DNA from: Pinctada imbricata
Lineage: Eukaryota
NCBI GenBank assembly: GCA_033119305.1
Contig: VSWD01000002.1
Location: 9,402,974 to 9,466,973 of the forward strand
Length of the DNA stretch: 64,000 bases
Reading direction: 5' to 3'
The position numbers and the translations under genes were made by a program. Of this stretch, positions 7,290 to 60,780 are shown one piece after another. How positions within the stretch are numbered: the first letter of the stretch is position 1; each line of letters opens with the position of its first letter. The notes beneath the pieces were generated by a model, which saw nothing but the letters and a program-made list of their open reading frames with translations, was not told the DNA's origin and searched no databases.

Positions 7290-8545
7290 TGTACTGTGAA
7301 ATCATTTATTATGTCCCCCATCAGAGAATAGGGGACATATTGCTTTGCTATTGTCGGCTGGTTGGTCCGTCGGTCTGTCAGTCTGTCCTCCACAACAGTT
7401 TCCATTAATTATCTCTAGAATGGATTCACATATTGAAATAAAGTTTGGTATACAGATACATCAAATGAAAATCTAGGTTAAGGGTATATCTGGGTGTGAT
7501 CGAAAAATTTTTGGCAGAGTTATGCCCCTTGGACTTAGAAAAATACCAAAATTTAAGTGTTTCTGTTCAATATCTCTAGAATGGATTCACATATTGAAAT
7601 GAAATTTTATAAACTGATAAATCAAATATAAATCTAGATTAAGTTTATATTTAGGTCCAATCCAACAAATTTTGACAGAGTTATGCCCCTTAGACTTAGA
7701 AAAATACCAAAATTTAAGGGTTTCTGTTCAATATCTCTAGAATGGATTCACATATTGAAATGAAATTTTATAAACTGATAAATCAAATGAAAATCTAGGT
7801 CAAGTTTTCTATTTAGGTCCAATCCAAAAATTTTTGACAGAGTTATGCCCTTTAGACTTAGAAAAATACACAAATTTAAGGGTTTCCGTTTAACATCTTT
7901 AGAATGGATTCAAATATTAAAACGAAATTTTATATACAGATACATCAAATGAAATTCTAGGTCAAGTTCATATTTTGGTCTGATAAAAAAAAATTGACAG
8001 AGTTATGCCCCTTGGACTTAGAAAAATACAAAAATTTAAAGTGCTTCCGTTCAATAACTGTGGAATTGTAACACATTTTGAAATGAAATTTTAGATACAT
8101 CAAACGAAAATCTAGGTCAAGTTCAAAATTGAGTCTGGTCAGAGAATAATGCCAGGTCACAGGGTTATGCCTCTTGACTTGGAAAAATATAAGAATTTAT
8201 GGGTTTCCATTCATTATCTTGCAATGGATTCACCTATTGAATTGAGATTTAGTTTAAAGATTCATCATGAGAAAATCCAGATCAAGTTGAGGTCCAGTCG
8301 AAAAAAAACCAACAAAAAAACAGAGTTATGCCCCTTTGACGTAGAAAAAATTACCCAAAATTAAAGGTTTTCATTCATTTTTACTGCAATGGAAGCATAA
8401 ATTAAAATGACATTTGGTATACAGACATATCTTATGAAAATCAAGACTGTGATAGATTCATTAATACAAATATAAAAACTTGCATTCATAATCAAAGAAG
8501 AAGTAGGGGGACATTTAATGTTTTACAATCATGACTTTAAATTTG
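7290..8545 (-). mobile_element. Pearl/Helentron-like non-autonomous element with the architecture 'hairpin - (GGTC)n microsatellite - about 6 tandem 160-bp satellite monomers'; inverted copy of 40040-41578
   Basis: Palindrome ATGTCCCC..GGGGACAT at 7305-7335; GGTCCGTCGGTCTGTCAGTCTGTCC at 7362-7388; 160-bp period from 7413 to about 8400; far end (about 8500-8540) is the reverse complement of the 40060 end of the other copy. Confidence 0.55.
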
Positions 8546-8672
8546 TTTTCGTGGTAGCTCAATTTTCATGGATGAGATTCAGTATTTTTGTGGGGACATA
8601 ATTTTGTGGATGCAAACCGTTGAAAAAAGATAAATATGGCAGAAAATACTAGTCTTTATAACAGTTATCTTT

Positions 8673-9610
8673 TTAACTCACCTGAGCAAAGCTCAAGTGA
8701 GCTATTGTCATAGTGCTCCGTCCGTCATCCGTCCATCCTCGTCATCCTGTGTAAACTTTTAACTAAGTTTTAACATCTTCTCTACAATGGCTGCACAGAA
8801 TTTCAAAGCACCTCACAGGAAGCTAGTTCTCAAAGTTCTCTACGAAGTTTGTGTTTTTCGTGCCGATCGGTCAACAAATATGGCCGCCGAGGGCTTTGGC
8901 TTATGCATTTTGGACTTCTCCTCTGCAACCGCTGCACAGAATTTCACGAAACCTTACAGGAAGTAAGTACTCAAGGTACTCTTCTAAGTTTGTGTTTTTT
9001 TGCCGATCGGACATCAAATATGGCCGTCCGTGGGCTCTGATTGGCTGACACATTTTCCACTTCTCCTCTGTGTAATTGTTGCACAGAATTTCACGAACCT
9101 TACAAGTAGCAAGTACTCAAGGTCTTCCACCAAGTTTGTGTTTTTCGTGCCGATGATGATCAACAAATATAGGCTGCCGAGGGTTCTGATTGGCTTACAC
9201 ATTTTGGACTTCTCAGAATTTCAGGAAACCTTACTGGAAGCAATTACTCAAAGTCCTCTACAAAGTCTTGCGTTTTTCAATCTGATCAGGTCAACAAATT
9301 TGGCCACTGAGGGCTCTGATTGGCTGATGCATTTTGGACTTCTCATTGCACAGAATTTTACAAAACCTTATAAGAAGCAAGTACTCAAGGTCACCTGCCA
9401 AGTTTGTGTTTTTCATGCAGATTGGTCAACAAAAATGGCTGCCAAGGGCTTTGATTGGCCAAGGCAGTTTCAACATTCTCTGTGACCACTGCATAGAATT
9501 TCATGAAACATTACAGGAAGCAAGTACTCTATTACCTCCACCAATTTGTGTACTATCATATTTCAGTCTGCAACTCAGATGAGTGGTGTGGCCCCCTTGG
9601 GCCTCTTCTT
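8673..9610 (+). mobile_element. Helentron/pearl-like element carrying about 5 units of a 150-bp tandem repeat ('H150' family); uninterrupted paralogue of 55903-58545
   Basis: 5' end TTAACTCACCTGAGCAAAGCTCAAGTGAGCTATT (imperfect hairpin), then a (GTCC)n-like tract CCGTCCGTCATCCGTCC, then repeats containing GCCGATCGGTCAACAAATATGGCCGCCGAGGGCTCTGATTGGCTGA, and a 3' hairpin GGCCCCCTTGGGCC at 9593-9606. Confidence 0.55.
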
Positions 9611-11385: not shown

Positions 11386-14300
11386 GTTCTGTGAAAGAAA
11401 GATTTGTCATAAATAAGTATTTCCCCCCTGACTTCTCAGCAGCCTACTTTGATCCCAAAGCCCGAGGTATGAGAGGCAAGGCAGTCAGACATAGGAAATG
11501 TAGCTATTCACCCACAGCAGGCCTATCTACTGACTTTACTGAATCTGGGGTCATACCCAACCTTAAGGAAGATGTCCCGGTCTCATCAGAAGGTTTCCAT
11601 GGAAACGACATTGACCTCATATCCCTGGAGTATCAATCAGAGTCTTTTGTACCTGACGAATCAGCCTTTATGGAGTATCAATCAGAACCTTTTATAAATG
11701 ACAAATCAGTATTTAGTCCAGGAAGGGTTGATGTATTTGGACAGTCTTCTGAGTTTAAGCCAACATCACCTGCTTATAGTCCAGTCTCTCCTTTTTACAG
11801 TCCAACATCACCAGCCTATAGTCCAACATCACCAGCCTATATTCAACCTTTTACATCCTCTAGTTTGACATCAAAAGTTAGTTCAATATCAAATGCATTT
11901 GCACCAAGGGCTCAGTCAATGTGGAAGAATCCAAACGGAGAACCAATTCCTGGAGATGGAGATAGTGACAAATCTCCCAAGAGAAAAAAGAAGAAATTCC
12001 CTCCAGATGGAAGAAAAGATTCACCGTCAAGTTATGCCAGAAAGTCTGCACCTGTTGCTGATAGTATACTCGAAATGTATGGAGACCTTAACAGTTCTAG
12101 TGATCTCAGCAATACAGAGATAGAGGTGGTCTCTGAAGAACCACCGTGGGTAAAAACTGCCGCGGCAAAAGATGAAGAATTCAAGAAAGATATCAGACAA
12201 GAGGATGTGATGCTTCATAGTGATAAGAGATTGTGGTCTGAAACTGAGGAGGGACGTATGAAGAGATTGCGTTCTGAACTTGAGGAGGAATATAGAAAGA
12301 GATTGTGTTCTGAAACTGATGAGGGATATAGAATGTTAATAAGTATGAGGGAAGGAAAAGGAGGGAAAGGTCTGGAAAAAGGGGGAGCAATGCGAGAACT
12401 GAAAACAGAGGACTGTTGTTATCATATTCAGGCGGAGAAAAAGAAACAGAAAAAGGGAGGAAAACAGTTAGCTACAAAAGCAGCTAGGAAATCAGCTCCA
12501 GCCTCAGGTGGAGTCTTTGGAGGCAGTAGTGACAGTGGCAGCAGTGACAGTGACAGCAGCGACAAAGATTCTTCAAAGGATGGTAAATTGACGGGAAAAG
12601 TAGAGAGGAAAGTACTTGCAACAAAAGCAGCTAGAAAAGCGGCTCCAGGAGCAGGAGGGGTCCATACAAGCAGTAGTGACAGTAGTGACAGTGAAAGCAG
12701 CGACAAAGATTCTTCAAAGGATGTTAAATTGACGGGAAAAATAGAGAGGAAAGTACTTGCAACAAAAGCAGCTAGAAAAGCGGCTCCAGGAGCAGGAGGG
12801 GTCCATACAAGCAGTAGTGATAGTAGTGACAGTGAAAGCAGCGACAAAGATTCTTCAAAGGATGGTAAATTGACGGGAAAAGTAGAGAGGAAAGTACTTG
12901 CAACAAAAGCAGCTAGAAAAGCGGCTCCAGGAGCAGGAGGGGTCCATACAAGCAGTAGTGACAGTAGTGACAGTGAAAGCAGCGACAAAGATTCTTCAAA
13001 GGATGTTAAATTGACGGGAAAAGTAGAGAGGAAAGTACTTGCAACAAAAGCAGCTAGAAAAGCGGCTCCAGGAGCAGGAGGGGTCCATACAAGCAGTAGT
13101 GACAGTAGTGACAGTGAAAGCAGCGACAAAGATTCTTCAAAGGATGTTAAATTGACGGGAAAAGTAGGGAGGAAAGTACTTGCAACAAAAGCAGCTAGAA
13201 AAGCGGCTCCAGGAGCAGGAGGGGTCCATACAAGCAGTAGTGACAGTAGTGACAGTGAAAGCAGCGACAAAGATTCTTCAAAGGATGTTAAATTGACAGG
13301 AAAAGTAGGGAGGAAAGTACTTGCAACAAAAGCAGCTAGAAAAGCGGCTCCAGGAGCAGGAGGGGTCCATACAAGCAGTAGTGACAGTAGTGACAGTGAC
13401 AGCAGTGACGACAGTGACTGGGTTAGTAGTTACGGTTTATTGGAAGAAAATCGAGTTCAGCACCAAGGGGTTGGGCCTCAGGGAAAATGGGATGGAAAAG
13501 GAGGGGGAATTAGGATTGAAACAGAAGAAGACAGAAAATCTGCTCAAGCCCCTGATAAGGATTCAGCTGGTAGCAGCAACATGAGCATCAGTTGTAGTAG
13601 TGATGGGAGTGAAGGTGTAGAAAAGGAAATATCATCTCAGCCTCGGAGTGGTCTAGGCTGGAGCTCCTCAGGGAAAGGTGCAGAAAAGCAAATATCATCT
13701 CAGCCTCCGGGGGGTTTGGGCTGGAGCTCTGAAGGGAAAGGTGCTGAAAATGAAGTGGCAGCTCTGACTGATGCTAACGGAGTAATGTTTAACAGTCTTG
13801 GAGTTATTGATGGTACTTCAAATGTAAAAGGTGTGTTTTCAGGGATGGGTTGGGAGGCAGATGATAGAGGGTCAGGAAGTGTAGTGATGGGAAGGAAAGG
13901 GTGGGTAGCAAGAGGAGGATGGTCTGGAGGTAGAGGGGCCCAAATATGGGGAGGGGTAAGAGGAAGGGGAAGAGGAAGAGGAAGGGCTGTTAGGCACAGG
14001 GGTATGGGTAGAGGAAGGGGCACCGGAAGGAGAGGAGGAAATACAAAAGGAACAATAGCTGCAAAGACGTCATCCCTTGTGGAGTATAGGGATTCAGGAT
14101 CAGAGCGAGAAGAAGAACGGGATGAGGATCAAAGGAAGATAGAGGATCTAGGGCGATCTGAAAAAAGATCAAGAGAGAGAGATAGAAGAAGAGAGAGATC
14201 TAGGTCTAGAGAAAGAAGAAGTGGGAGATTAAGATCCAGGAGTTTCAGTCCCTGTGTGATTAGTGCAGGATGGAGTGGATCTTCTCATCAAAGGTCACTA

Positions 14301-34914: not shown

Positions 34915-35270
34915 TAAATGAGGGGATCTCTAACAACACCCGATTGCAGTACCAACAGCAAAACCCCAAAACACCCACTGCATAAACACAAAGCAGACAT
35001 ACCAGAAAGAGACGAAAATGGTTCAAGCAGTGCCAAATTACATAGTAACATCAAATACAAATGACTGCACATAAACCAACGAGACCAATGGGTAATCGGT
35101 GCCGACTTAGGACGGCCATCAGCCACGTCAGTAGCAGACGGTGTGGTTATCCTGCTTACGTGCACACAACCCTCCCACTTTTCCGATTACCCAGAGGTCT
35201 CGAAGACTGTACAATTGTTGTGTAAAATGACCTCCTCACTGTAAGATGACCATACAATCAGACAGCATGA
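34915..35270 (+). mobile_element. SINE-like dispersed repeat, family 'F1' (..AACAACACC.GATTG.AG.ACC.ACAGCAAAACCCCAAAACACCCA...CCAATGGG.AA.CGGTGCCGACTTAGGACGGCCATC...TTTTCCGATTACCCAGAGGTCTCGAAGA...)
   Basis: Other copies at 43040-43390 (+), 49340-49800 (-) and 57215-57654 (-). Confidence 0.55.
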
Positions 35271-36094
35271 GGCAGGGGCCCAAGAAACACACAGATGGAT
35301 AAGTAAAAGGATATAAAACATAAGGCGTACGAATCTGATAGATTCATTTGTTTGCTTGGTTGGTTTGTTCTTTAGTTTCTAACATATTAGTTTCGTAGTA
35401 TTCCATTGTTTATCAGATATTCAAACAAATTTTATTGGAAATCAGTAGAAAATCTAGCAGATCTATAAATAATGTATTTTATGTTGCGATTCAACCATAC
35501 CTTCTACTTAAATAATTTTGGCACAATTATACTTTTAATTTTTTTTATATTCTGTCATGACTGTGCTTCATGACATGATCGAACTCTTCAATATTTTAGT
35601 ATCATTTTAAGTTATTTTCTATAGAATGTAGATGAGATATTTATGAGAACGAATATTAAATATTCATGCACCACTCTGCAGGTAATAAGTAAAAGGGTCG
35701 CGGGAGTACTTGGATTCTCTTTTATGCAAACACTAAGAATAAATTAAGCATGTATGAAAACGTTTCTGACGAACTCAAAGCATATCCTGGCTCTCTTAAT
35801 TTGCTTCGTGCTAATACATTATACATTTATTATAGATTTGCCTAATACATTATAGATTTAACTTATACATTATAGATTTACCTAAAATAGCCTTCAAGTT
35901 GGTAAAAAGAAGATTTCCTTAGTTGCATCTTCGAAGAAAAGTTGAGGTCCGCTCTGTTTATCTCTAAAGATAGATTGGGAAACCTGCGCATGCTTGTGTG
36001 ATTCTCCATGGGTATTTCGCTAATTTGTTTTCGGTCCTTTGTTACTTTAAGATAACCTCTCTATGAACATGATGACATTAGTTAAATGAGTTAA

Positions 36095-40039: not shown

Positions 40040-41578
40040 CAAGTTAAAAGTCATGTTTGTAAAATGCCCCCCTGCCCCTTCTGTGATTAAAGTCTGTCAA
40101 AACTTTATACTTGCATTGATACAACCTATGGGGGTATAAAGTAACAGTTTCATTTCAATATGTAACTCCACTCAAGAGATATTGAACAGAAACCCTGAAG
40201 TTTTGGTATTTTTCAAAGTGCAAGGGGCATAACTCTGTCCAAATTTTTTTGATCGGACCTAAATATGAACTTGACCTAGATTTTCATTTGATGTGTCTGT
40301 ATACAAAATTTCATTTTTATATGTAACTCCACTCAAGAGATATTGAACGGAAACCCTGAAATTTTGGTATTTTTCGAAGTGCAAGGGGCATTACTCTGTC
40401 AAAATTTTGTTGATTGGACCCAAATAAAAACTTGACCTAGATTGTCATTTGATGTATCCATATACAAAATTTCATTTCAATATGTAACTCCACTCAAGAG
40501 ATATTGAACGGAAACCCTGAAATTTTGGGTTTTTTCGAAGTGCAAGGGGCATTACTCTGTCAAAATTTTGTTGATTGGACCCAAAGAAAAACTTGACCTA
40601 GATTGTCATTTGATGTATCCGTATACAAAATTTCATTTCAATATGTAACTCAACTCAAGAGATATTGAACGGAAACCCTGAAATTTTGGTTTTTTTTCGA
40701 AGTGCAAGGGGCATAACTCTGTCCAAATTTTTTCGATCGGACCTTAATACGAACTTGACCTGGATTTTCATTTGATGTGTCTGTATACAAAATTTCATTT
40801 CAATATGTAACTCCATTCAAGAGATAATGAACGGAAACCCTGAAATTTTGGTATTTTTTGAAGTGCAAGGGGCATAACTCTGTCAAAATTTTTTTGATCG
40901 GACCCAAATATGAACTTGACCTAAATTTTTGTTTGATGTGACTGTATACAAAATTTCATTTCAATATGTGAATCCACTCAAGAGATATTGAACGGAAACC
41001 CTGAAATTTTGGTATTTTTCGAAGTGCAAGGGGCATAACTCTGTCAAAATTTTTTCGATCGGACCTTAATACGAACTTGACCTGGATTTTCATTTGATGT
41101 GTCTGTATACAAAATTTCATTTCAATATGTAACTCCATTCAAGAGATATTGAACGGAAACCCTGAAATTTTGGTATTTTTCGAAATGCAAGGGGCATAAC
41201 TCTGTCCAAATTTTTTTGATCGGACCCAAATATGAACTTGACCTAGATTTTTGTTTGATGTGTCTGTATACAAAATTTCATTTCAATATGTAACTCCATT
41301 CAAGAGATATTGAACGGAAACCCTGAAATTTTGGTATTTTTCGAAATGCAAGGGGCATAACTCTGTCAAAATTTTTTGATCGGACCCAAATGTGAACTTG
41401 ACCTAGATTTTTGTTTGATGTGTCTGTATACCAAATTTCATTTCAATATGTGAATCCATTCCAGAGATATTGAACGGAAACTGATGTCGCGGACCGACCG
41501 ACAGACCGACCGACCGACCGACCGACAGCGGCAAACCTATATGTCCCCTCTTCTTCGAAGGGGGGCATAAAAAGTAAA
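40040..41578 (+). mobile_element. Pearl/Helentron-like element: about 9 tandem 161-bp satellite monomers, then a (GACC)n microsatellite, then terminal hairpin TATATGTCCCCTC..GAAGGGGGGCATA; inverted copy of 7290-8545
   Basis: Monomer is the reverse complement of the 7413-8400 monomer; the 5' end at 40060 contains ATGCCCCCC, which is inverted relative to the 3' hairpin. Confidence 0.6.
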
Positions 41579-43039
41579 TGTGATAATATTACATGATTGG
41601 CACCCAGGATTGAGCTTTTAATTTAGAAAAAAATAATTCAATTAAGTGCTGAGATCAATGTCAATATGACTATAGAAAATGGTATGCAATGTAAACAGTA
41701 AACTTCTCGATAATATAAATGAAATAATGCAATGACAAAAGGAAAATTATCAAGAATTGAATATGGTTGAAGGGAAGGGAGTGGCAAAAAAAAAAAAGTT
41801 CATCGTGCTTGTTGTTGAGATTTTCAATTTAAAAAAAAGTGATGATATCACCTAGCTGGATTTTGATTGGTAGTTTTTATAAGAGACCTTTCCTGATTGG
41901 TCGAATTCCTGCAAATATAATTTATCGAGGGGAATTTCACAACAAGGTTACAATGTAAACATAAAGCAGTGAACAATTCTAAGAATAACTCTAAACATCT
42001 GGTATGACAGTATAGACCTTGTATAGGCAGATAATAGGTGCATTCATAATGTACAACAGTACATAAATAATTTACAGGAAATTCATCAGACATAAATAAA
42101 ATTATGAACAAAAATATCGTTCTATGCTAAAAACAAATTAGCTCGGTGCCCCTTAGTTTGATTTCCATATTTTAAAATGCATTAACAATGGGCTCTTATG
42201 AATGCTTTTCATACCTTTATACGCTACAGTCATTTTCAACTATCCTTGTCTTCTGTTAGACTAACACAATTATCTGGGCAAAACTCGGGGAAAGTACCGG
42301 TATGCATGCATACCCCATAATTTTCTTTTCATATTATTGGACATTGGGTAAAGATAATACAGGTTTCAAATATATATATAATATATATGTTTTAAAACTG
42401 TTTCTACAATGTAAAAAATGTAAAATTTTGAAATTTTCCATAGGGTGTAACATGTTAAGGTCATTGAACAGATAAATTTGCAGCAAGGACCAGACATGCA
42501 CGTTTCGGGCACTTAAGCCCCGTCAGTGATCCTCAATCTGAACGATGTAATGTGGCCAAAGAGTGTGAAAATTATTATGACCGGAAATGTACCGAAAGAC
42601 GTAGCATGATGGATGGGACATGATGCTACAGGACCAATGTTTTTGAAATTTCAAGAAATCTGTACAATCTAGGGTCTATTTGAAACGTTTTTATAAAAAG
42701 TGCAAAGGTGATAAGCACGAAAAATTCCCCCCCAAAAAATGTTATCATAGGGTGATTACAAGCTCTCGCGATCAAAGGTACGATGTACCTTAAAGGGGTT
42801 GAACAAGGTTTTTTTTTTATTTTGTTCTTAAAATTGTTTCCTTTTTTTAAATATCTGTGTTATTGTCTCCGTCTTTTTATGTACTTTTCGTTTTTATTTC
42901 TCAAACAAATTATAATCCTTTCAATGGTGATTTTTTGATCTGATTTCGGGTTTTGTCTCACAATGAATATGTCTAATGCATGGGGATCTATCTTGGCAAA
43001 TACAATAAAACCCTATAAATGGTAAACGTCTTCAAACAA

Positions 43040-43390
43040 AGGAGGGGATCTCCAACAACACCAGATTGTAGCACCCACAGCAAAACCCCAAAACACCCAA
43101 TGCAAAAACACAAAGCAGACAAGCACAGAAAGAGACGTGTAAGGGACAAGGAACGTCAACGCACAACACAGAAACATCAAACACGAAGGACTACACATAA
43201 ACCAACGAGACCAATGGGCAACCGGTGCCGACTTAGGACGGCCATCTGCCACGGAAATAGCTGAAGGTATGGTTATCCTGGATTAAGTGCGCACAACCCT
43301 CCAACTTTTCCGATTACCCAGAGGTCTCGAAGAACGCACAATTGTGGTGTAAAACAACCTCCTCACTGTCAGATGACCACACACAAACAA
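43040..43390 (+). mobile_element. SINE-like repeat F1 copy, followed immediately (43430-43600) by a degenerate hammerhead-family repeat
   Basis: Alignment by eye with the 34915, 49340 (reverse complement) and 57215 (reverse complement) copies. Confidence 0.5.
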
Positions 43391-43989
43391 GACCGCAAAA
43401 CGCAGGGTACAAATTCAATAGCATCATTTAAGAACAGATAAATTTGCAGCATGGACAAGGCATGCACGTTTTGGGTACTTGACCCTCGTCAGTGACACTC
43501 AATCTAAACAATGTAATAAGGCCAAAGAGTGTGAATGTTATTATGTCCAAAAATGTACCGAAAGACGTAGCAGAATGAGTAGGATACGATGCTATAGGAC
43601 AAATTAATTACATCAGTTTTCAAATTTGTAACATAATAAAACAGGTTGTGTATCTAATATTTGTCTAATTGCTCTCTAATAACTTCTAGTCTGTATGAAT
43701 CTATGATATAGGTAAAGCATACTCCAGGAAATGTTCTGTAACCTACCTCCCCGACACAAATTTAGGAAGGGTAAGGTAGGGTATCAAGTAAAAAATCCTC
43801 CTTGAAATCCCATAGGGGAGGGGATTACATACTATTTCTGGAATAGCCTATTCCTCATATGTCATAATTGCCTACATGTTTTTACGCCTAATGTCAATGC
43901 CTTTCTTCTCTATGTAGGCAGATTGTTCTTGATAATGCAATATATGGAAAATTCCTTTGCCTTTTTAATCGAGAGGGGAAAACTTATAT

Positions 43990-44420
43990 TTGTACATCAG
44001 AATGAAAGGGTAGCTTTTCTGCTACAGAATACAGTAGTGACTTGTGTATTGCATTGTCCTTCCTCTTGGACAACATTTCAGTGAAATTTGGTGAGAATCT
44101 CTACAAGCAGGTTGTAGGGATCTCAATGGGTACTAATTGTGCGCCTCTTGTTGCAGATTTATTTTTATACACGTAAAAAAATATATACAAAATCTTCAAA
44201 AGCAAAGAAAACATGATGATGTGAAATGTTTCATTGGTACTTCTCGGTACCCGGATGATATTCTTACTATCGATAATCCTGTTTTTGAAAATTATAAAAA
44301 TGATATTTATCCACAAGAATTGACTCTAAACAAGGCAAACGTTACAAAGACAGAAACACCATTTTTCAACCTAAGTATCAAAATTCTTAATAGAGACATT
44401 CATACAAGTGTATATGACTA
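43990..44420 (+). pseudogene. Degraded retrotransposon reverse-transcriptase fragment (..FGENLYKQVVGISMGTNCAPLVADLFLY, frameshift, then ..SRYPDDILTIDNP..)
   Basis: It resembles the LTR-retrotransposon/retroviral RT block 'MPFGL.NAP..F' and the YxDD catalytic box, but it is interrupted by stops and frameshifts. Confidence 0.35.
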
Positions 44421-46121
44421 AAGAGATGATTTTGGATTCAAAATAATAAATTTTCCCTAGTTTGACGGTGATTTTCATAGATTACCGTCATAGATTATAT
44501 ACATTCCACAACTCATCCTGTATGCTAGAGCATGTTATGATGTTTTGGATTTTCATAGTAGAAATTTACAAATAACGAAGAAACTTTTAGGTCAAGGGTT
44601 TTACTTTCACAAACTAGTAAAGACTTTGATCCTAATGTCACCAGACGGACACTAGGCTTGGTACTTGACCAATCGACAGTCTTGTACCAGCTCATTTTAA
44701 AGACTTGCACTCTGACTGATTGTGACGACAGGACCCCATGACGGGCCCTGTCCAAACCCCTTTTAGAGAAGACAGTGTCTCGACCACCTGTCCTCTCTGA
44801 ATGTCAGTCGGACTCCTCATACGCGCGCACACAAAGAGATTGGAGTCAAAACGTGTACATTGTGGAATGAACGTCAAAATAGAATCAATATGTACTTTTG
44901 TCCCTTATTTTACGTCAACTTGAAATGTAAATAAAATGAGATTGAAAACAGAAAAGAGGTCAAGGTTATTTTTATAATTAAGGACCCATATTAGGTTGTA
45001 ACATATAAAGAAGGAAAATATGTGTTCATGAAAACACTGATGTAAATAATTACACAAATTTTATGATTTACTATGCAAGATGATCAACAATCATTATCGT
45101 AAAACCCATTACATTATTTCGAAAAAGCAAGAAAATGACTCAATTTTGTACAAAAACTCTCATTAACGTTAGAAGAGTCATATGCTTGAGCAGTCAATTT
45201 TGTACAGATAGAAAATAGGCCTCATTCTAACATGTCAGAGCATCAAAAACATAATTCATTAAAATACAGACGGGTTGAACATGGTGTAGGAGTGAGCAGG
45301 AATGAGTCGGGTATGATGAAAGACTTTCCGAAAAAGCCAATAACCATTTTAATTTGCAAATTAGTAATGAAACCATGCACCAGAAATAATTAAAATTGCT
45401 TTTCTAAAAATTGATTAAAGATCATACAAAACCTGGCATAATGGTAAAAATATTACTTTTAAAAAGTTGCAATCCGCGTGTCATGTGACCATGCAATTCC
45501 AGGAGGAATACGCATCTCTCTTCCTACATGAAAAATTGAAATAAAAGTCCAAAACATGGATTGATTTCAGAGTCATGTTTCAGAGACATTCTGTACGAAT
45601 ATTTTAATACATTCGAAACCTTGAAATGAAATTGTATCGTATTAAATTGCAGTATCGTTCAGGCCAATTCTTTATTGTCTACCATTCATATATTTCTTCG
45701 GTAAATTTGATGCTGTTATAAATATTTCAGATGTATCGAATTTTCTATATAAGTGTTTTGATAAATGTATATCGTGACAGTTTTCATTTAAGTAAATACT
45801 GTATAAATTGTTTGCATGCATAAATGATGAATTTTATGATTGTTCGTAGTTAGACGTAACTTTTCTATAACTATTTTGTACTATGCTTCATTTCCCATTC
45901 ATATCATATGAAAGGTAACCATGATAATGTTTTGTATTTTACATTTTGTACGTAGGGAATTCACACTTTAACATAGGAATATATTATGGATATGTCTATA
46001 TACAGCTTTGAAAAGTTACTAGAACCGTCATCATTGTAATTGAAATGACTCATTTTTTCCATGATTATTTGCTGCTTGATGTCTTATAAAAAATTGAAAT
46101 GATTTATCTTTTTTCAAATAG

Positions 46122-48832: not shown

Positions 48833-49339
48833 AAATTGTGAAGATACCAATTGTCGTCATCTTTATGACTGTCTGTTTCTGTGTATCATGTATAGGGGGA
48901 GAGCTTTACATAATGTTGTTAAAACTTGTTGTCCTATCCCTTTTCGCTTTATATTGAAATAAAATGTTTACACTAAACTGAACTAAAATACCGAAAATAG
49001 GTAGTTCTACCTTGGGTATTTCACAACCTGCATTTTATGGTGACATAATAAACAAGATCAGAAGAATCAAAGATAGACAACATAACTATCGAAAATACGT
49101 CAGAATCATCAACCGCCTTTTATTCCGTAGATATGATCCTATTGTCACCAGACAGACACTAGGCTTGGTACTTGACCAATCTACAGTCTTGTACAAGCGC
49201 ACTCTTAAAACTTGCACTCTGACTGACTGTGACGACGGGACTCCATGACGGGCCCTGTCCAAACCTCTTTAGAAAAGACATGGCTTCGACCACCTGTCCT
49301 CTCTGAATGTCAGTCGAACTCCTCGGGTGATAACATACT

Positions 49340-49800
49340 TGAGCTCGCCGCGGCAGAGAACGGATTGTATTACGTACATTCACATATTCATCTGTGTTGC
49401 TTGGGCCTTTGCGTTTTGCGGTCTTGTTTGTTTGTGATCATTTGACAGTGAGGAGGTTGTTTTACACCACAATTGTACGTTCTTCGAGACCTCTGGGTAA
49501 TCAGAAAGGAAAAGTGGGAATGTTGTGCGCACGAAATCCAGGATAACCACACCTTCTGCCACTTCCGTGGCAGATGGCCGTCCTAAGTCGGCACCGGTTG
49601 TCCATTGGTCTCGTTGGTTTATGTGTAGTCCTTTGTGTTTGATGTTTCTGTGTTGTGTGTTGACGTTTCTTGTCCCTTTTGCGTCTCTTTCTGTGCTTGT
49701 CTGCTTTGTGTTTTTGCATTGGGTGTTTTGGGGTTTTGCTGTGGGTGCTGCAACCTGGTGTTGTTGGAGATCCCCTCCTTTGTCTTGAATGAAATAAATG
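49340..49800 (-). mobile_element. Full-length (about 460 bp) SINE-like F1 copy; the 200 bp immediately upstream (49128-49335) duplicates 44625-44835
   Basis: Reverse complement aligns with 43040-43390, and its tail aligns with 57225-57330. Confidence 0.55.
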
Positions 49801-52725: not shown

Positions 52726-52947
52726 ATGCAGAAACACCCAGTCCCAGACCTTATCCTCCTCTTTCTACTTGTGAGCTCGTCCAGCGGGAAGGATCCATTA
52801 TACATAGGGGGATTTTTCCCGATGCAGGATGGAGCGTGGGATGGTTCCGGTATATTACCGGCAGCACAGATGGCCATAGAAGATGTTAATGCATACCCTC
52901 ATATACTACCTGACCATGAACTCCATCTAGTCTGGAATAATAGCATG
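52726..52947 (+). CDS. GABBR1: GABA-B receptor subunit 1-like gene, first coding exon (signal peptide MQKHPVPDLILLFLLVSSSSG, then KDPLYIGGFFPMQDGAWDGSGILPAAQMAIEDVNAYPHILPDHELHLVWNNSM)
   Basis: From memory, this aligns with GABBR1 '..[50 protein letters not shown]'; donor ATG|GTAGGA at 52948. Confidence 0.7.
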
Positions 52948-55092: not shown

Positions 55093-55747
55093 TTCTAATG
55101 CTTTGGTCAGTAAGAAGCTAGAAAACGTCTGCTTTTAACGACGTCGTCATAGCAACGCATGACGTCATAGCAGAAACTGCAGTGAACCATGAATCCCCTT
55201 GCAGTTTTTTAATCGCTCAATCAATCAGAATGCGCGTTACAAACGGAGTGCATTAGAATATATTTTACAGATGTTGTGTCATAGTATGAATCTGCTTCAT
55301 TGGAAAAATACAAATTGCATTGAGACAACGAGTCATGGGAAAACATTAATAAAAATTTACCAACATATAATATGAACTGTTTCACTTTGAGAAAAAAAAA
55401 TAAATAAGGACCAGAGTAAACCTGGCTCAAACTTTGGACGGTCAATAACTACATCCATAGCAACTTGTGTGGTTATCAAAATTCAATGAGCACAACCCTC
55501 CAAATCATACAACTACATAGTGGTTCCCTTAGGCGCACATAAATACAGACAAAACTACCGGGACTGTAGCTAACATTTTAAATTTTGTATGTGGATGAAC
55601 GCATTTGGCATATCTGAAACAGTCCTTGCTCTGTTGGCTGGCTTGAGATTTGGACAGTTTGACCGTTGTTCATTTCTGCATACTTTATAATTTTTCGTAC
55701 ATTCCTATTATGAGTATTAATATATTAATGACTTTATTTCTTTGCAG

Positions 55748-55849
55748 ATCATGTCAAATCTTTATAATCAGCTTTTAGATGAAGGAATGGAAATAATTGC
55801 CTCAGAAAAATTTGGAAGCGACCCCAGAGCAGCTCTGATGAGTATAAAT
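55748..55849 (+). CDS. GABBR1: GABA-B-R1-like exon 4 (IMSNLYNQLLDEGMEIIASEKFGSDPRAALMSIN)
   Basis: Acceptor TTCTTTGCAG|ATC; donor AAT|GTAATT; 102 bp; matches '[36 protein letters not shown]'. Confidence 0.7.
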
Positions 55850-55932
55850 GTAATTACTTCTTTGACTGTACTGTCTGCTTCTTTAATCTTTATTTTTTTT
55901 AACTCACCTGAGCGAGGCTCAAGTGAGCTATT

Positions 55933-56519
55933 AGAGAGGTTGAGCAAACCCAACTTGTACGTGTACGAGAACTTGTACGTGTATTTACACGGTATCTGTT
56001 TACACGTTGACGTTATGCGGTTGAGCAGATGTCACAACGCGTACTGGTACGTGTAAATCGTATATACGTTTTTGTGATGTAATTTATCTTTTGTTTACGA
56101 CTGCGTATTCGTCAAGACATGGCATCTAGATTCTATAGGTAAGGGGCATTCAGCAAAGACGGTGAATTAAAATTTCTAATCTAAGTAATCGGATATATAT
56201 AACATCAAAATTAGACTTCAAGAATAAAATTTTGGGTCACTTTGAGGGTTCTTCTTTAAAATATGATACATTTTATTTGCAATTCCTTCTAATATACAAA
56301 AAGGACATACGTTCCGGAATAAATTGAATATAGGTTTTCATAGGTTATCTGCATTCAGTTGCTTATAAAATCTACAAGTAACCATAAACGTGTACTTACC
56401 GCTTTACACATTTTACCGAACGTGTAACGTGTAGCACAGGTTCTTGGAACGCATAATGTGATGACGCCATTAATAACTTTTTGACGTACACGTACAAGTA
56501 CGATTTGCTCAACCTCTCT
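55933..56519. mobile_element. Nested MITE of 587 bp with TIRs of about 36 bp (AGAGAGGTTGAGCAAA..CTTGTACGTGTACG) flanked by a 3-bp ATT target-site duplication
   Basis: Insertion splits GAGCTATTGTCATAG (intact at 8698-8712) into GAGCTATT[MITE]ATTGTCATAG; a 3-bp TSD suggests the PIF/Harbinger superfamily. Confidence 0.6.
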
Positions 56520-57214
56520 ATTGTCATAGCGCGCCGTCCGTCGTCCGTCGTTGTCGTCCGTCCGGCGTAAACTTTTAACATTTTCGACATCTCCTCTGCA
56601 ATTGCTGCATGGAATATCACCGAACCTTACAGGAAGGAAGTACTCAAGGTCCTCTACCAAGTTTGGGTTTTTCATGCCGAACGGTCAACAAATATGGCCA
56701 CCTAGGGCTCTGATTGGCTGACACATTTTCGACATCTCCTCTGCAACCGCTGCACAGAATTTCATGAAACTTTACAGGAAATAAGTAGTCAAGGTCCTCT
56801 ACCAAATTTGTTTTTTTTTTGTGCCGATCGGTCAACAAATATGGCCGCCGGGGGCTCTGATTGGCTGACACATTTTCGACATCTCCTCTGCAACCGCTGC
56901 ACAGAATTTCATGAAACTTTACAGGAAGGAAGTACTCAAGGTCCTCTACCAAGTTTGTGTTTTTTTTTCTTTGTGCCGATTGGTCAACAAATATGGCCGC
57001 CGAGGGCTCTGATTGGCTGACACATTTTCGACATCTCCTCTGCAACCGCTGCACAGAATTTCATGAAACTTTACAGGAAGGAAGTACTCAAGGTCCTCTA
57101 CCAAGTTTGTGTTTTTTTTTTTTTGTGCCGATTGGTCAACAAATATGGCCGCCGAGGGCTCTGATTGGCTGACACATTTTCGACATCTCCTCTGCAACCG
57201 CTGCACAGAATTTC

Positions 57215-57654
57215 ATGAAACTTTACAAACCGGCAGAGCACGGACTGTATTACGCATGCCCTCTTTTTATATCCATTTACATATTCATCTGTGTCTCTGG
57301 GGCCTCTGCGTTTCGCGGTCTTGTTTGTGTGATGTCATCTTACAGTGAGGAGGTTGTTTTACACCACATTTGTACGTTCTTCGAGACCTCTGGGTAATTG
57401 GAGAAGTGAGAGGGTTGTGCGCACGTAATCCAGGATAACCACACCATTTGCTACTTGCGTGACAGATGGCCGTCCAAAGTCGGCACCGGTTACCCATTGG
57501 TCTCGTCGGTTTATGTGTAGTCTTTTGTGTTTGATGTTTACATGTCGTGTGTCTCTTTTCCGTCTCGTGCTGTACTCGTCTTTTGTGTTTTTGCATCGGG
57601 TGTTTTGGTGTTTTACTGTTGATGCTGCAACGGGGTCTTGTTGGAGATCTCCTC
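57215..57654 (-). mobile_element. SINE-like F1 element inserted into a 150-bp repeat unit, with about 6 bp TTTACA duplicated at both junctions
   Basis: Unit sequence ..GAAACTTTACAGGAAGG.. is split into ..AACTTTACAAaccggcagag[element]cttctTTTTACAAGAAGGAAG.. Confidence 0.5.
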
Positions 57655-60209
57655 CCTTCTTTTTACAAGAAGGAAGTACTCAAGGTCTTCTACCAAGTTT
57701 GGGTTTTTCGTGCCGATCGTTCAACAAATATGGCCGCCGAGGGCTCTGATTGGCTGATACATTTTCGACATCTCCTCTGCAACCGCTGCACAGAATGTCA
57801 TGAAACTTTACAGGAAGGAAGTACTCAAGGTCCTCTACCAAGTTTGTGTTTTTCGTGCCGATCGTTCAACAAATATGGCCGCCGAGGGCTCTGATTGGCT
57901 GATACATTTTCGACATCTCCTCTGCAACCGCTGCACAGAATTTCATGAAACTTTACAGGAAGGAAGTACTCAAAGTCCTCTACCAAGTTTGTGTTTTTTG
58001 TGCCGATCGGTCAACAAATATGGCTGCCGAGGGCTCTGATTGGCTGATACATTTTCGACATCTCCTCTGCAACCGCTGCACAGAATTTCATGAAACTTTA
58101 CAGGAAGGAAGTATTCAAGGTCCTCCAACAAGTTTGAGTTTTTCGTGCCGATCGGTCAACAAATATGGCCGCCGAGTGCTCTTATTTGCTTCTCTGCAAA
58201 AAAACCACTGCACAGATTTTCATGAAACTTTACAGGAAGAAAGTACTCAAGGTCTTCCACCAAGATTGTGTATTTTGTGCTGATCGGTCAACAAATATGG
58301 CCGCCGAGGACTCTGATTGGATGACACATTTTCGAAATCTCTTCTGCAACCATTGCACAGAATTTCACGAAACCTTGCAGCAAGCAAGTACATAAGGTCC
58401 TCTGCCAAGTTTGTGTTTTTCTTGTCGATAGGTCAACAAATATGGCTGTCAAGGGCTTTGATCTGTAGAAGTATTATTTGTGACTTTTAACCCTTTGTCT
58501 GCAACTCAGGTGAGCGATGTGGCCCCCTTGGGCGCCTCTTGTTATAAGAAGTTAATTTGTGAGAATTCTTTATTCCACAATTGAATTTTATTCTGCTTTA
58601 ATACTGCAGGAAGCGAAGGAAAAACTACAATGACATCACAGTATTCTAATCTTCCTCAATGTAATGGAACATAAAAATGAAGAAGAAAAAATGAAAAAAA
58701 TGAAAAAGAAATGGAAAAGGAAAAAAAAAAAAGGAAAAAAGAAAAAGAAAAGAAAAGAGGAACATATCTCAAATATGAACTGATAAACATAACTCTTTAT
58801 TAGAGAAAACGAATTCAAATTCATTTTAAATAGAACGTTGTCCGGTCTCTCTTGAACAGTTCCAGAAAACGGCATGCATGTCTGTAATCGATCTTTATAT
58901 TTAGCCTTGAATTGATGGATATCATTTTCAGAGATTAGGGCTACAAAGAAGGGCTTAGATTCTTTAATGTATTATATCATGCGATGATCAGCAACATCTA
59001 ACGACAAAGAAAAAGGCGGACATTAAAGGGGGATATCAAAAATATTTTCAGTATTTCTTCCGTAATATTTTCAATCAAAATGACACCATTACGACAGATC
59101 ACAATGTGATTCTATTGATTATCAACGTAATATGCATGGCAATTAACATGATTAACTCAAATTTGAAATTAGTCAATCGGGATTACCGCCTATTACATAT
59201 TTCATCCATTACTTCGTTCATTTTTATAGAAACTTGAAAAAGAGAATGTTAATTCCTCGTGAATAAAATGCAAAATTACATCGCGTTTTCTTTCATTCAA
59301 GGTTTTTGTTCACAGGCTCAAGTCGCAAAATGTGATTCTTTCACTTGAAACAGTATCTATTTTCAAGCCTAATGACATCTTTAACTTTGGCGTATCAAAA
59401 TATTCTTAAGACTCGTCTCATTGTTTGAGATACGGGATTAATGTCTATTCAATACATTCCTTTCTTTTTATTCTGGGTTTAGTCCGTCAAGGTTCAAGTC
59501 AGGTAATATACTTACATAATAATGCTTCATAATAAGAAATTCTAAGGAAACAAGGTCAAGGAGTAAATAAATAGAAGTTAAACAAAAATATTTTTCAAGA
59601 TTAGTCTGAAATATTTATGTCCTACACAAAGGGATGGTACACAGGGACTTATCGCGCTTCTCAGTTGCTTAATGTACTCTTGGTTATTAGCCCATAATTC
59701 AAAAAGCAACCGGGAAGCGCGATAAGCCCCCGTGGGATGGAAATATCTCCATCCGACTTGACCGCTATGAGAGAAGCATCGCAATAATTTCCATAGATAT
59801 GGTGACAACCTCATTAACACAGAGATAATGACAAAACCCAGACAACTGGCATGTGAAACTCGAGATACCGTCACTGAAATCAAATACTAGGAAGTTATAA
59901 ATTTTTGCTGAGCAAAGAGATTTCTGTTTTATTAAGGATACGTAGATGATCAAACAGTCGTTTTATGCAACTTATTTACATCAAAGATGATCAAGGAAGA
60001 ATTTTTTTCCATTATGACAAGCTGAGTAAAATAGCTTGAGAGGCAAAAAGATGTATCGTCATGGAAAATCTACAGAATCATAAATAAACAGAGATTTCTT
60101 TGTTACTGAATTCGATCTAGATTATTTTGACCCCACCCCCACCCTCCGATGAAAAGGAAGTTCTAAATTTTATGTTTTCTTCCAGTTTGTGTTAATTTTG
60201 CTTATTAGT

Positions 60210-60780
60210 CCCCTATCGGCTCGCCGGAGGGGACTTATAGTTTCCACCCCGTATGTCTGTCTGTCCGTCACACTTTAGTTTTGCAGACTTTTTTCGCTGT
60301 CGTTGCATATATTCATAACTCATTTTGGAATATCTCAGTGTGATACAGATCAAGTATGAGTTTTGTCCCGATTGACCTATGCTTACAAGAGGTATGGCCC
60401 TTGGACTTAACAAATGTTATGAAATTCTCAGTTTTCCGGACTTTTCTTCCATGGCATTGCAGATATTGAAATGATATTTTATATGTGAATACATCTTAGT
60501 GTTATACAGATCAAATTCGAGTTTGGTTTTAATTGACCCATTATTACAGGAGTTATACCCTTGCACTTAACAAATTGTTTGAAATTCTGAGTTTTCCGAT
60601 CTTTTTTCTCCATGTTATTGCAGATACTGAAAAAATTATACGTGAATACATCTCAGATTAAGTTCGATTTTTTTTTTCGATTGACCACATTTGACAGGAA
60701 TTATTGTCCCTGGACTTAGCAAATTTCATGAAATTTACAGTTTCCGGACTTTTCTTGGCTGTTGTAGATTACAAATATGG
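60210..60780 (-). mobile_element. Pearl-like element: hairpin AGTCCCCTATCGGCTCGCCGGAGGGGACT, (GTCT/GTCC)n tract, then about 3 tandem 150-190-bp units; related units also at 61200-61470
   Basis: Direct reading; the leader matches the 22852 and 2190 leaders. Confidence 0.45.

Follow-up and report, generated by a model that had tools for sequence, protein, structure and literature searches.

A HINE-type element interrupted by a Pangu-like MITE and the tail of a Naiad-like retroelement in intron 4 of a GABA-B receptor gene

Introduction

What is the composite block of repeats that follows the fourth coding exon of a GABA-B receptor gene, and in which order were its parts acquired? The original prediction, made for the 64,000-nt stretch of DNA analysed here (the window), described three layers of insertion in a single intron, namely a Helentron/pearl-like host element, a MITE and a SINE-like repeat termed F1. 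In our analysis, three unrelated mobile elements, a non-autonomous Helentron (HINE), a Pangu-type MITE and the tail of a Naiad, very probably entered the intron in succession. The MITE and F1 are indeed two independent insertions, each within the HINE; neither lies within the other, however, and the nesting is two deep, not three. HINE, MITE and F1 all belong to kinds that are already known, and represent ordinary genome litter with clean boundaries.

HINEs, MITEs and Naiads each number in the thousands to tens of thousands per bivalve genome, and because they are so numerous, nested transposons are to be expected in bivalve introns. The locus therefore carries little biological weight, and its practical value lies in annotation.

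Results

The gene was identified by alignment to GABA-B receptor subtype 1 (9jr0_A), which runs without gaps through four coding exons (E = 7e-44). Coding exon 1 starts at 52726, exons 2 and 3 lie at about 53.5 kb and 54.2 kb, and exon 4 of this subtype 1-like gene spans 55749-55850 (+ strand), with its donor site 50 bp upstream of the HINE; a candidate for exon 5 is found near 62.8 kb. The alignment supports the predicted location of the insertions in intron 4. An intact gene is absent from HINE, MITE and F1 alike, an autonomous partner was not found for any of them, and nothing suggests a role of one of the three for the receptor gene.

The HINE-type host, including its two later insertions, spans 55901-58543 (+), with some ambiguity of the 5' boundary within the T-run 55893-55900 plus AA. 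A smaller paralogue at about 8675-9610 (+) has the same termini and carries neither insertion. The 5' ends of the two copies match at 35 of 37 positions (8670-8706 versus 55896-55932), and the 3' ends are 87% identical over 47 nt (9566-9610 versus 58497-58543), with an overall identity of only about 80%. A 25-nt 5' motif and a 35-nt 3' motif each occur in the window solely in these two elements, where shuffled sequences give an expectation of 0. The end alignments thus bear out the predicted common termini of the larger and the shorter copy. The large copy contains two extra blocks, neither of which is present in the small copy or in the repeat consensus.

Both copies share the same succession of modules. 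At the 5' end of the large copy, the subterminal inverted repeat (subTIR) CTCACCTGAGC (55903-55913, +) and the complementary inverted repeat (IR) GCTCAAGTGAG (55917-55927, +) form a hairpin with a calculated DNA folding energy of -7.7 kcal/mol (z = -4.4); the same subTIR/IR pair is found at 8677-8701 of the small copy (z = -3.4). The left flank is closed by a (CCGT/CGTC)n microsatellite, read directly from the sequence at 56534-56565 (+), with its equivalent at 8721-8747. It is followed by an array of about ten tandem monomers of 145-152 bp (56578-58462, +), which was delineated by TRF, an anchor scan and monomer alignment, and is broken by F1. The monomers start at 56580, 56725, 56872, 57024, 57176, 57761, 57906, 58051, about 58190, and 58328; the array of the small copy (8776-9551) comprises about 5.5 monomers according to TRF. 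The 3' subTIR CTCAGGTGAG (58505-58514, +) is perfectly complementary to 55903-55912 and is succeeded by the palindrome GGCCCCCTTGGGCGCC (58521-58536, +), the corresponding modules of the small copy being located within 9568-9602. In the small copy, the palindrome (GGCCC..GGGCC) has a 5-bp stem; in the large one the stem is weakened to 4 bp and folds no better than shuffled sequences. T's are also found at the element end, and the 5' end follows a T-run in all three HINE elements at hand, that is, the two in the window and a third, related HINE-like 5' end on a metagenome contig (L009).

This anatomy matches that of Cg_HINE and thereby confirms the predicted Helentron/pearl-like nature of the host. 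Pearl elements belong to the HINE class, and Cg_HINE and pearl are non-autonomous Helentrons of bivalves (Vojvoda Zeljko et al., 2020, PMC7492417; Gaffney et al., 2003, cited there). The published layout of Cg_HINE consists of a 5' subTIR of 11-12 nt with IR and microsatellite, central satellite-like repeats in a fixed orientation, and a 3' subTIR with palindrome, at a T-rich or TT target that is not duplicated, and its left flanks end in a microsatellite of the GTCY/GTCC class (PMC7492417). Order and orientation of the modules are identical here, from the 11-nt 5' subTIR with its complementary IR 3 nt away, through the GTCY-type microsatellite, to the 3' subTIR, the GC palindrome and the T-rich insertion site. 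The monomers are likewise satellite-like (147 bp in Cg_HINE cluster CL6 versus 145-152 bp here), and both elements are sited in non-coding parts of genes; the array is longer in our case, with about ten monomers versus three to five on average, and the host species is probably not C. gigas. The likeness is one of anatomy, taken from the description, as the family consensus sequences were published only as figures. From the anatomy of the family, we infer both the insertion event itself and the absence of a target-site duplication (TSD). The first step would accordingly have been the entry of a HINE into the run of T's located 50 bp beyond coding exon 4, presumably by rolling-circle transposition with a Rep/helicase-endonuclease supplied in trans.

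The first extra block is a 587-bp non-autonomous transposon with terminal inverted repeats (TIRs), positioned exactly as predicted at 55933-56519 (+). Its 35-bp TIRs (55933-55967 and 56485-56519) start with AGAGAGG and match at 32 of 35 positions, or with 92% over 36 nt if one flanking base is counted; the subterminal motifs ACTTGTACGTGTA and TTTACACG are repeated near both ends. The element is flanked by ATT on the left (55930-55932, +) and on the right (56520-56522, +). Strictly, the direct repeat around it measures 5 bp (CTATT), the terminal CT of the TIR happening to equal the target; ATT was taken as the duplication because it is selected by the symmetry of the TIRs and by the related copies. 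The empty site GAGCTATTGTCATAG occurs once, at 8699-8713 in the small HINE copy. It is a valid uninterrupted paralogue, as had been proposed, albeit displaced by one nucleotide from the predicted 8698-8712. A single ATT stands at the unoccupied site of this paralogue (8704-8706), and also in L009, both reading GAGCTATTGT.

The same arrangement could in principle have arisen from a deletion of 590 bp in the 8.7-kb copy and not from a gain in the large one, considering that the window offers just one paralogue for comparison and that the two HINE copies are only about 80% identical. We regard this as extremely improbable, as the extra block is bounded by 35-bp terminal inverted repeats and a duplicated ATT, as the HINE-like 5' end of L009, from an unrelated source, is also devoid of it, and as the same block recurs with the same termini, amid unrelated flanking sequence, in six other contigs. 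The block is thus an insertion with a 3-bp duplication, ATT/ATT at its borders corresponding to a single ATT in the paralogue, as originally read. In this second step, the MITE integrated between the hairpin and the microsatellite of the HINE and its ATT target was duplicated, for which a DDE transposase with a 3-nt staggered cut at A-N-T would be the presumable agent.

For the assignment of the MITE to a transposon group, relatives were located through translations of open reading frames and then read as DNA. A second copy is missing from the 64-kb window, and eleven were recovered from public assemblies, all with the same 16-bp terminus. The recovered copies are all short and non-coding, their long open reading frames being spurious read-throughs. 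We scored 18 family ends, 12 of them read as DNA and six inferred from a codon, and a flanking A-N-T triplet fits all 18. It stands beside AGAGAGGTTGAGCAAA at each of the 12 ends read as DNA, with a chance expectation of about 1e-12 at the given base composition; at each of the six codon-inferred ends, A is fixed as the first base and the codon is compatible with A-N-T. Exact 3-bp repeats flank three of the five complete copies (ATT in the window, ACT in L016, AAT in L020), and the triplets of the other two are unequal at the central base (AAT/ATT in L017, AGT/ATT in L018).

The Pangu group is defined by a 5'-ANT-3' TSD and TIRs of 11-40 bp, usually beginning with AG or GG; it belongs to the PHIS superfamily as a sister group of PIF/Harbinger, for which TWA is the canonical target, and occurs in an oyster, e.g. 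as Pangu_CGig (Han et al., 2015, PMC4482050). Given the A-N-T flanks and the common terminus of its relatives, the MITE is best classified, on sequence grounds, as a non-autonomous member of the Pangu group within the PHIS superfamily. It shares with this group the 5'-ANT-3' TSD, here backed by a paralogous empty site, and the 35-bp TIR with an AG start, and a mollusc is among the known hosts of the group. It differs in that the window copy is non-autonomous and is placed by its TSD and TIRs, and in that the central bases of the flanking triplets are unequal in two of the five complete relatives. The earlier view of ATT as a footprint typical of PIF/Harbinger does not hold: PIF/Harbinger in the strict sense shares the superfamily, the 3-bp duplication and the AT-rich target, whereas the A-N-T flanks and the AG-start TIR are those of Pangu.

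An origin from another cut-and-paste group, be it PIF/Harbinger (TWA), ISL2EU (a 2-bp AT duplication within A|AT|T) or Tc1/mariner (TA), appears unlikely. PIF/Harbinger would suit the 3-bp length of the duplication, but TWA is found at none of the 12 ends read as DNA. For ISL2EU, L017 displays the exact pattern (AAT[element]ATT), AAT (read inward) is over-represented at the ends read as DNA (7/12, with ATT at 2/12), and four of the six codon-inferred ends encode Asn, which is compatible with AAT; this model, however, misfits the window copy (ATT/ATT), L016 (ACT/ACT) and L020 (AAT/AAT). For Tc1/mariner, a TA beside GAGAGG...CCTCTC can be read in the window, provided that the paralogues differ by a 3-bp indel. 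On the TA model, NNT should stand ahead of the TIR, but all 18 ends have A as their first base; the model further requires that the indel fell precisely at the insertion point, while two independent empty sites show no such indel. An allele or orthologue that reads GAGCTATTATTGTC and is free of the MITE would indicate TA or another target. Within the Pangu reading, the central-base mismatches in two of the five relatives could mean that the Pangu (ANT) and ISL2EU (A|AT|T) targets are two outcomes of one enzyme.

The second extra block, F1, splits the fifth monomer (B5) of the HINE array according to the monomer alignment. The predicted insertion into one monomer is therefore real, but its predicted span (57215-57654, 440 bp) is shifted by 10-15 bp, as homology to the family runs from 57230 to 57664 (+, 435 bp). 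The block is 99.8% identical to positions 1-435 of the related contig L011, which extends further in the 5' direction. A direct repeat TTTACA(A) is present on the left (57222-57228, +), separated from F1 by a single, possibly untemplated A at 57229, and on the right (57662-57668, +), where it runs into the T-rich end of F1. Since the T's of the repeat overlap F1's own T-rich 3' end, the length of the duplication, given before as about 6 bp (TTTACA), is ambiguous between 4 and 7 bp. The 3' end of the family is marked by the ends of three contigs (L011-L013). Three older copies in the window, four copies with F1, have this 3' end in common and differ in their 5' ends; an inverted truncated copy (43035-43405, -) adjoins a sense copy (43963-44818, +).

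The provenance of F1 was traced through its longer relatives. L015, at 2225 bp the longest of the related contigs, contains a reading frame of 545 codons with a weak match to the reverse transcriptase (RT) family RVT_1 (E = 1.7e-4; 21.8 bits, below the curated Pfam cut-off of 29.6), and a search against PDB sequences gave no match. The spacing between RT motifs A and B, about 72 residues, is long and compatible with an IFD-like insert. The frame includes an ADKA motif (APADKAANNTIII) and an in-frame TGA at codon 52, exactly eight residues after DKA, beyond which 492 further codons are open. At the stop codon of both L015 and L011, a SECIS element was detected (SECIS_1, 39.3 bits at a gathering threshold of 35, E = 1.1e-5), and decayed SECIS relics persist in the window at 44730-44794 and 49237-49300. 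F1 itself starts some 55 nt past the SECIS and consequently lacks it.

In selenoprotein-coding Naiads, a group of Penelope-like elements (PLEs), DKG is changed to DKA, an in-frame UGA replaces the conserved Cys eight residues on, and a SECIS starts the 3' UTR; Naiads as such are defined by an N-terminal GIY-YIG endonuclease and CxC regions (Craig et al., 2021, PMC8557442). Judged by sequence, the longer F1 relatives show the published hallmarks of the selenoprotein-coding Naiads of bivalves (PMC8557442), with the DKA, UGA and RT evidence coming from L015, which is only 88% identical to the window copy in the tail and ends before the region of the N-terminal GIY-YIG and CxC. F1 is thus very probably the 435-bp 5'-truncated tail, consisting of 3' UTR only, of a Naiad-type PLE. 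Compared by described features and not by consensus sequence, the relatives of the window copy resemble Naiad_Mmer and Naiad_Scon of clams in DKA and the UGA eight residues downstream, and Naiad_Mmer in the SECIS that overlaps the ORF end with a UGA inside or adjacent. Shared with both are the absence of a hammerhead ribozyme (no family match at E <= 1), heavy 5' truncation, inverted truncated beside sense copies, large copy numbers, and contigs wrongly filed under bacteria. In contrast to these elements, the window copy consists of the distal 3' UTR alone, even without SECIS, and its target is not a (TA)n microsatellite.

The possibility that F1 is a SINE or the tail of a LINE, and not a PLE, draws on its short length (435 bp) and non-coding nature, the common 3' end and varied 5' truncation of the copies, the short flanking duplication, the frequent borrowing of LINE 3' tails by SINEs, and an RT match that is by itself too weak for typing. 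We nevertheless consider it very unlikely. The combination of DKA, a UGA eight residues on and a SECIS at the stop codon has been published only for Naiads (PMC8557442), a poly(A) or simple-repeat tail is absent, and the inverted truncated copy beside a sense copy at 43-45 kb is typical of PLEs. A SINE in particular was rejected as a candidate, and the earlier label "SINE-like" was abandoned with it, as F1 has no tRNA-, 5S- or 7SL-like pol III head and no private 5' module, but aligns colinearly, from its first base to its last, with the 3' UTR of a longer element that encodes an RT. ARAGORN detected no tRNA in the window, and Rfam yielded no match in 55700-58800 at E <= 1.

Taking F1 as the tail of a Naiad-type PLE with an identifiable parent, its insertion forms the third step. 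Reverse transcription of the element would have started on a nick within monomer 5 and halted some 435 nt later, so that the distal 3' UTR alone remains, with a duplication of 4-7 bp on its two sides.

Discussion

With a single difference in 435 positions from a consensus-like family contig, F1 is a very recent copy. As that contig has an intact SECIS, it is conceivable, although we would not favour it, that the selenoprotein-coding Naiad lineage is active, or was so very recently, in the species of the window. If this species is neither of the two clams with described elements, selenoprotein-coding transposons would be wider spread in bivalves than reported; the nearest protein match with a name is from the pearl oyster Pinctada imbricata. 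For annotation, the lesson is that a "SINE-like" repeat can be the 3' tail of a selenoprotein-coding PLE. Such a young copy could moreover be scored for presence or absence as a marker in population data, and the MITE provides a textbook case of an in-window empty site that fixes the Pangu-type A-N-T duplication. As a side observation, four GenBank assemblies labelled as bacterial carry the F1-type eukaryotic repeat.

Host gene and host element

Candidate coding exons 1-4 were located from 52726, at about 53.5 kb, at about 54.2 kb, and at 55749-55850, respectively, and their joined translations aligned end-to-end, gapless at the junctions, with GABA-B receptor subtype 1 chains, among them 9jr0_A (E = 7e-44) and human GABBR1 (E about 1e-41). 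Near 62.8 kb there is a candidate for a fifth exon (QDKDARVIIAAFFPDRAQEVFC). As the repeat element under study starts 50 bp past the exon 4 donor site, its predicted placement in intron 4 of a GABA-B receptor gene is correct when coding exons are counted. A protein search with exon 1 returned relatives at 62-68% only, and of ten locus-specific open reading frames (ORFs) representing exon 1, each F1 junction, the filled alleles and their hypothetical empty counterparts, none occurs in a 15-billion-protein collection.

The window is AT-rich eukaryotic DNA. The interrupted element at 55901-58543 is a HINE, i.e. a non-autonomous, pearl-like Helentron, with a small paralogous copy at 8675-9610. The termini of the two copies are held in common, as had been proposed: upon alignment, 35/37 nt are identical at the 5' ends, and the 3' ends are 87% identical over 47 nt. 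Within the window, a 25-nt 5' motif (CTCACCTGAGC-NNN-GCTCAAGTGAG) and a 35-nt 3' motif are present solely in these two copies, with 0 occurrences of either expected from shuffled sequence. T-rich insertion sites are expected for Helentrons, and a T-run precedes the 5' end in both window copies and a related 5' end in L009, a metagenome contig that was the sole match to the HINE 5' hairpin.

The HINE comprises an 11-nt subterminal repeat at the 5' end, the complement of this repeat 3 nt away (folding as a DNA hairpin, z = -4.4 for the large copy and -3.4 for the small one), a GTCY-type microsatellite, satellite-like monomers, a 3' subTIR at 58505-58514 that is the perfect complement of 55903-55912 at the 5' end, and a GGCCC..GGGCC palindrome, degraded in the large copy. 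The microsatellite, (CCGT)n, and the tandem array are internal to both copies, with about 10 monomers of 145-152 bp each in the large copy and about 5.5, more degenerate ones in the small copy. This order of parts agrees point for point with Cg_HINE, a group of non-autonomous Helentrons from the Pacific oyster that has since absorbed the older "pearl" elements (PMC7492417); the likeness is one of anatomy, with the named families compared by their published description. Searches of paper full texts with element sequence strings returned chance primer matches only. In the large copy, the monomers left of F1 (56725-57214) have expanded T-runs and GACAC ends in common, those right of it (57669-58050) have GATAC in common, and two of the latter also GTTCAAC; this suggests local duplication of neighbouring array monomers.

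The MITE and its family

The MITE was placed at 55933-56519 with TIRs of about 36 bp in the original prediction, and over this span of 587 bp we measured TIRs of 35 nt, 32/35 matching, with ACTTGTACGTGTA and TTTACACG motifs repeated near both ends. No further copy was found elsewhere in the window. The block is flanked by ATT at 55930-55932 and ATT at 56520-56522; GAGCTATTGTCATAG is found a single time in the small HINE copy, at 8699-8713, which shifts the predicted empty site by one base, and L009 likewise has GAGCTATTGT there. The block is an insertion with defined boundaries. The strict direct repeat around it is CTATT, since the final CT of the right TIR equals the target, and duplications of 0 to 5 bases are all arithmetically possible; symmetrical TIRs are obtained with ATT only, in agreement with the 3-bp duplication proposed earlier. 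TIR symmetry is absent both from a reading with a 1-bp target-site duplication (TSD) and 36-bp TIRs and from the 5-bp reading, CTATT, and relatives diverge right after an A-N-T triplet.

Exact scans for the terminus AGAGAGGTTGAGCAAANNNNACTTGTACG gave no match in metagenome, genome and viral collections, and relatives were therefore sought by searching a translated stop-free frame against protein collections, including ORFs from raw eukaryotic contigs. This gave twelve ORFs that run into the same terminus, and DNA was obtained for six of their contigs. A 16-nt terminus, AGAGAGGTTGAGCAAA, is found in all DNA-level relatives (10/11 ends exact), and the adjoining triplet is A-N-T at 12/12 ends read as DNA, namely those of five complete copies (window, L016, L017, L018 and L020) and one end each of L010 and L019; at six further ends, inferred from codons only, the first base is A in 6/6. 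The repeat is exact in the window copy (ATT), L016 (ACT) and L020 (AAT), but the central base differs in L017 (1507-1964; left AAT, right ATT) and L018 (1540-1992; left AGT, right ATT), both with perfect 16-nt termini. Between the window MITE and L010, homology breaks off exactly past ...CCTCTCTATT. The three TIR mismatches of the window copy recur in the relatives, with CCCAAC in one arm and CCGTAC in the other, and so characterise the family and do not indicate age. Read inward, AAT is over-represented among all ends of the family.

PIF/Harbinger elements generate a 3-bp duplication of sequence TWA, while their sister group in the PHIS superfamily, Pangu, which includes an oyster family, has 5'-ANT-3' TSDs, confirmed on paralogous empty sites, and TIRs of 11-40 bp, usually beginning AG or GG (PMC4482050). 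The window MITE agrees with Pangu in the three features that can be tested, i.e. the ANT duplication, TIR length and TIR start. Of the PIF/Harbinger-type footprint originally predicted, the length and the superfamily stand and the group does not, since the family flanks are A-N-T and not TWA; judged by its ends, the MITE is most probably Pangu-type, with the caveat that the central bases of L017 and L018 are unequal. The AAT/ATT flanks of L017 fit the A|AT|T target pattern of ISL2EU. Among the relatives recovered, none bearing a transposase was found.

F1 and its parent element

F1 had been predicted as a 440-bp element at 57215-57654 that splits one monomer. In the monomer alignment, monomer 5 indeed breaks off after ...GAAACTTTACA and continues from TTTACAAGAAGGAAG..., with coordinates shifted: homology to the repeat family spans 57230-57664. 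The direct repeat TTTACA(A) is present at 57222-57228 and 57662-57668. As the family 3' end, ...CCCTTCTTTTT(AC), at which three contigs stop, carries its own T's, these are shared with the repeat, and the target duplication, previously given as about 6 bp (TTTACA), is 4-7 bp. The window also contains three older copies, at 49377-49777 (+), 43042-43405 (-) and 34920-35318 (-), which are 80-83% identical and have the 3' end in common, with differing 5' ends.

A translated search yielded contigs 99.1-99.8% identical to window F1 that are filed as Clostridium paraputrificum and Bacillus thuringiensis (L011-L014: RAYJ01000047.1, RAYI01000138.1, RAYK01000198.1 and RAYC01000097.1, compared with 57230-57666) and that stop at the F1 repeat boundary. 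Given these bacterial labels, they are clearly contaminants; it looks like low-coverage, bivalve-type contamination of which high-copy repeats alone were assembled. The sole named eukaryotic match was a Pinctada imbricata protein overlapping a related repeat (83% over 47 residues). L011 follows window 57664-57230 with one mismatch and then extends further 5', this extension matching sequence upstream of the 49-kb copy at 84% identity. Because L011 continues past 57230, window F1 is a 5'-truncated piece of a longer element.

L015, a 2.2-kb contig 88% identical to window F1 in its tail, has a 545-codon frame with a weak RVT_1 match (E = 1.7e-4, below the curated threshold); it also shows APADKAANNTIII, with an in-frame TGA exactly eight residues past DKA. 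In both L015 and L011, a SECIS scoring above the Rfam gathering threshold overlaps the ORF end, and no hammerhead ribozyme was found with Rfam; a PDB sequence search gave no match for the reverse transcriptase (RT). In Naiad Penelope-like elements (PLEs), DKG is changed to DKA, UGA occupies the cysteine position eight residues past this motif, a SECIS marks the start of the 3' UTR, and a canonical hammerhead is lacking; they are heavily 5'-truncated, with inverted truncated copies adjoining sense copies, number tens of thousands in bivalves, and give matches on mis-assigned "bacterial" contigs (Craig et al., 2021, PMC8557442). The F1 relatives display exactly this published combination of DKA, UGA, SECIS and no hammerhead; the 2.2 kb of L015 stop short of the N-terminal GIY-YIG and CxC regions. 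The SINE-like assignment was not sustained, as neither ARAGORN nor Rfam found a pol III-type head on F1 and the block is colinear with a longer RT-type element; F1 is most probably the tail of a Naiad PLE. With its start about 55 nt past the SECIS position, it is 3' UTR only.

Decayed SECIS relics occur at the homologous positions of older copies, scoring 26.4 bits at 44730-44794 and 22.6 bits at 49237-49300, both under the Rfam threshold of 35. An inverted 5'-truncated copy at 43035-43405 (-) adjoins a sense fragment at 43963-44818, and a further sense 3' end lies at 49013-49789. A reading of the two inverted F1 copies near 43 kb and 49.8 kb as the long TIRs of a single composite DNA transposon was rejected, as they have no matching outer-end duplication and no ORF between them, and show the pattern described for PLEs instead.

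Order and age of the insertions

The HINE must have come first, with the MITE and F1 as later, independent insertions. Nesting depth is therefore two, and not the three layers of the original prediction. The observation itself is accurate and well above chance, and its main inference of insertions with defined boundaries, not deletions, was upheld. As only 1/435 positions differ from a consensus-like contig, F1 is very young. HINE, MITE and Naiad tail all belong to known kinds abundant in bivalves, which makes the finding an ordinary one.

Other repeats in the window

A second HINE-like element, unrelated to the first, lies at about 7310-8450, directly upstream of the small copy, and combines a hairpin (ATGTCCCCCATCAGAGAATAGGGGACAT) and a (GTCN)n microsatellite with monomers of 161 bp. 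Further arrays of 161-bp period are found at 40148-41481 and 60332-60656, the latter within the same intron 4. A 141-bp tandem repeat occupies 12534-13409 (98% identity, TRF), and a 27-bp satellite at 1-1485, with 55 copies at 96% identity, reaches the window edge.
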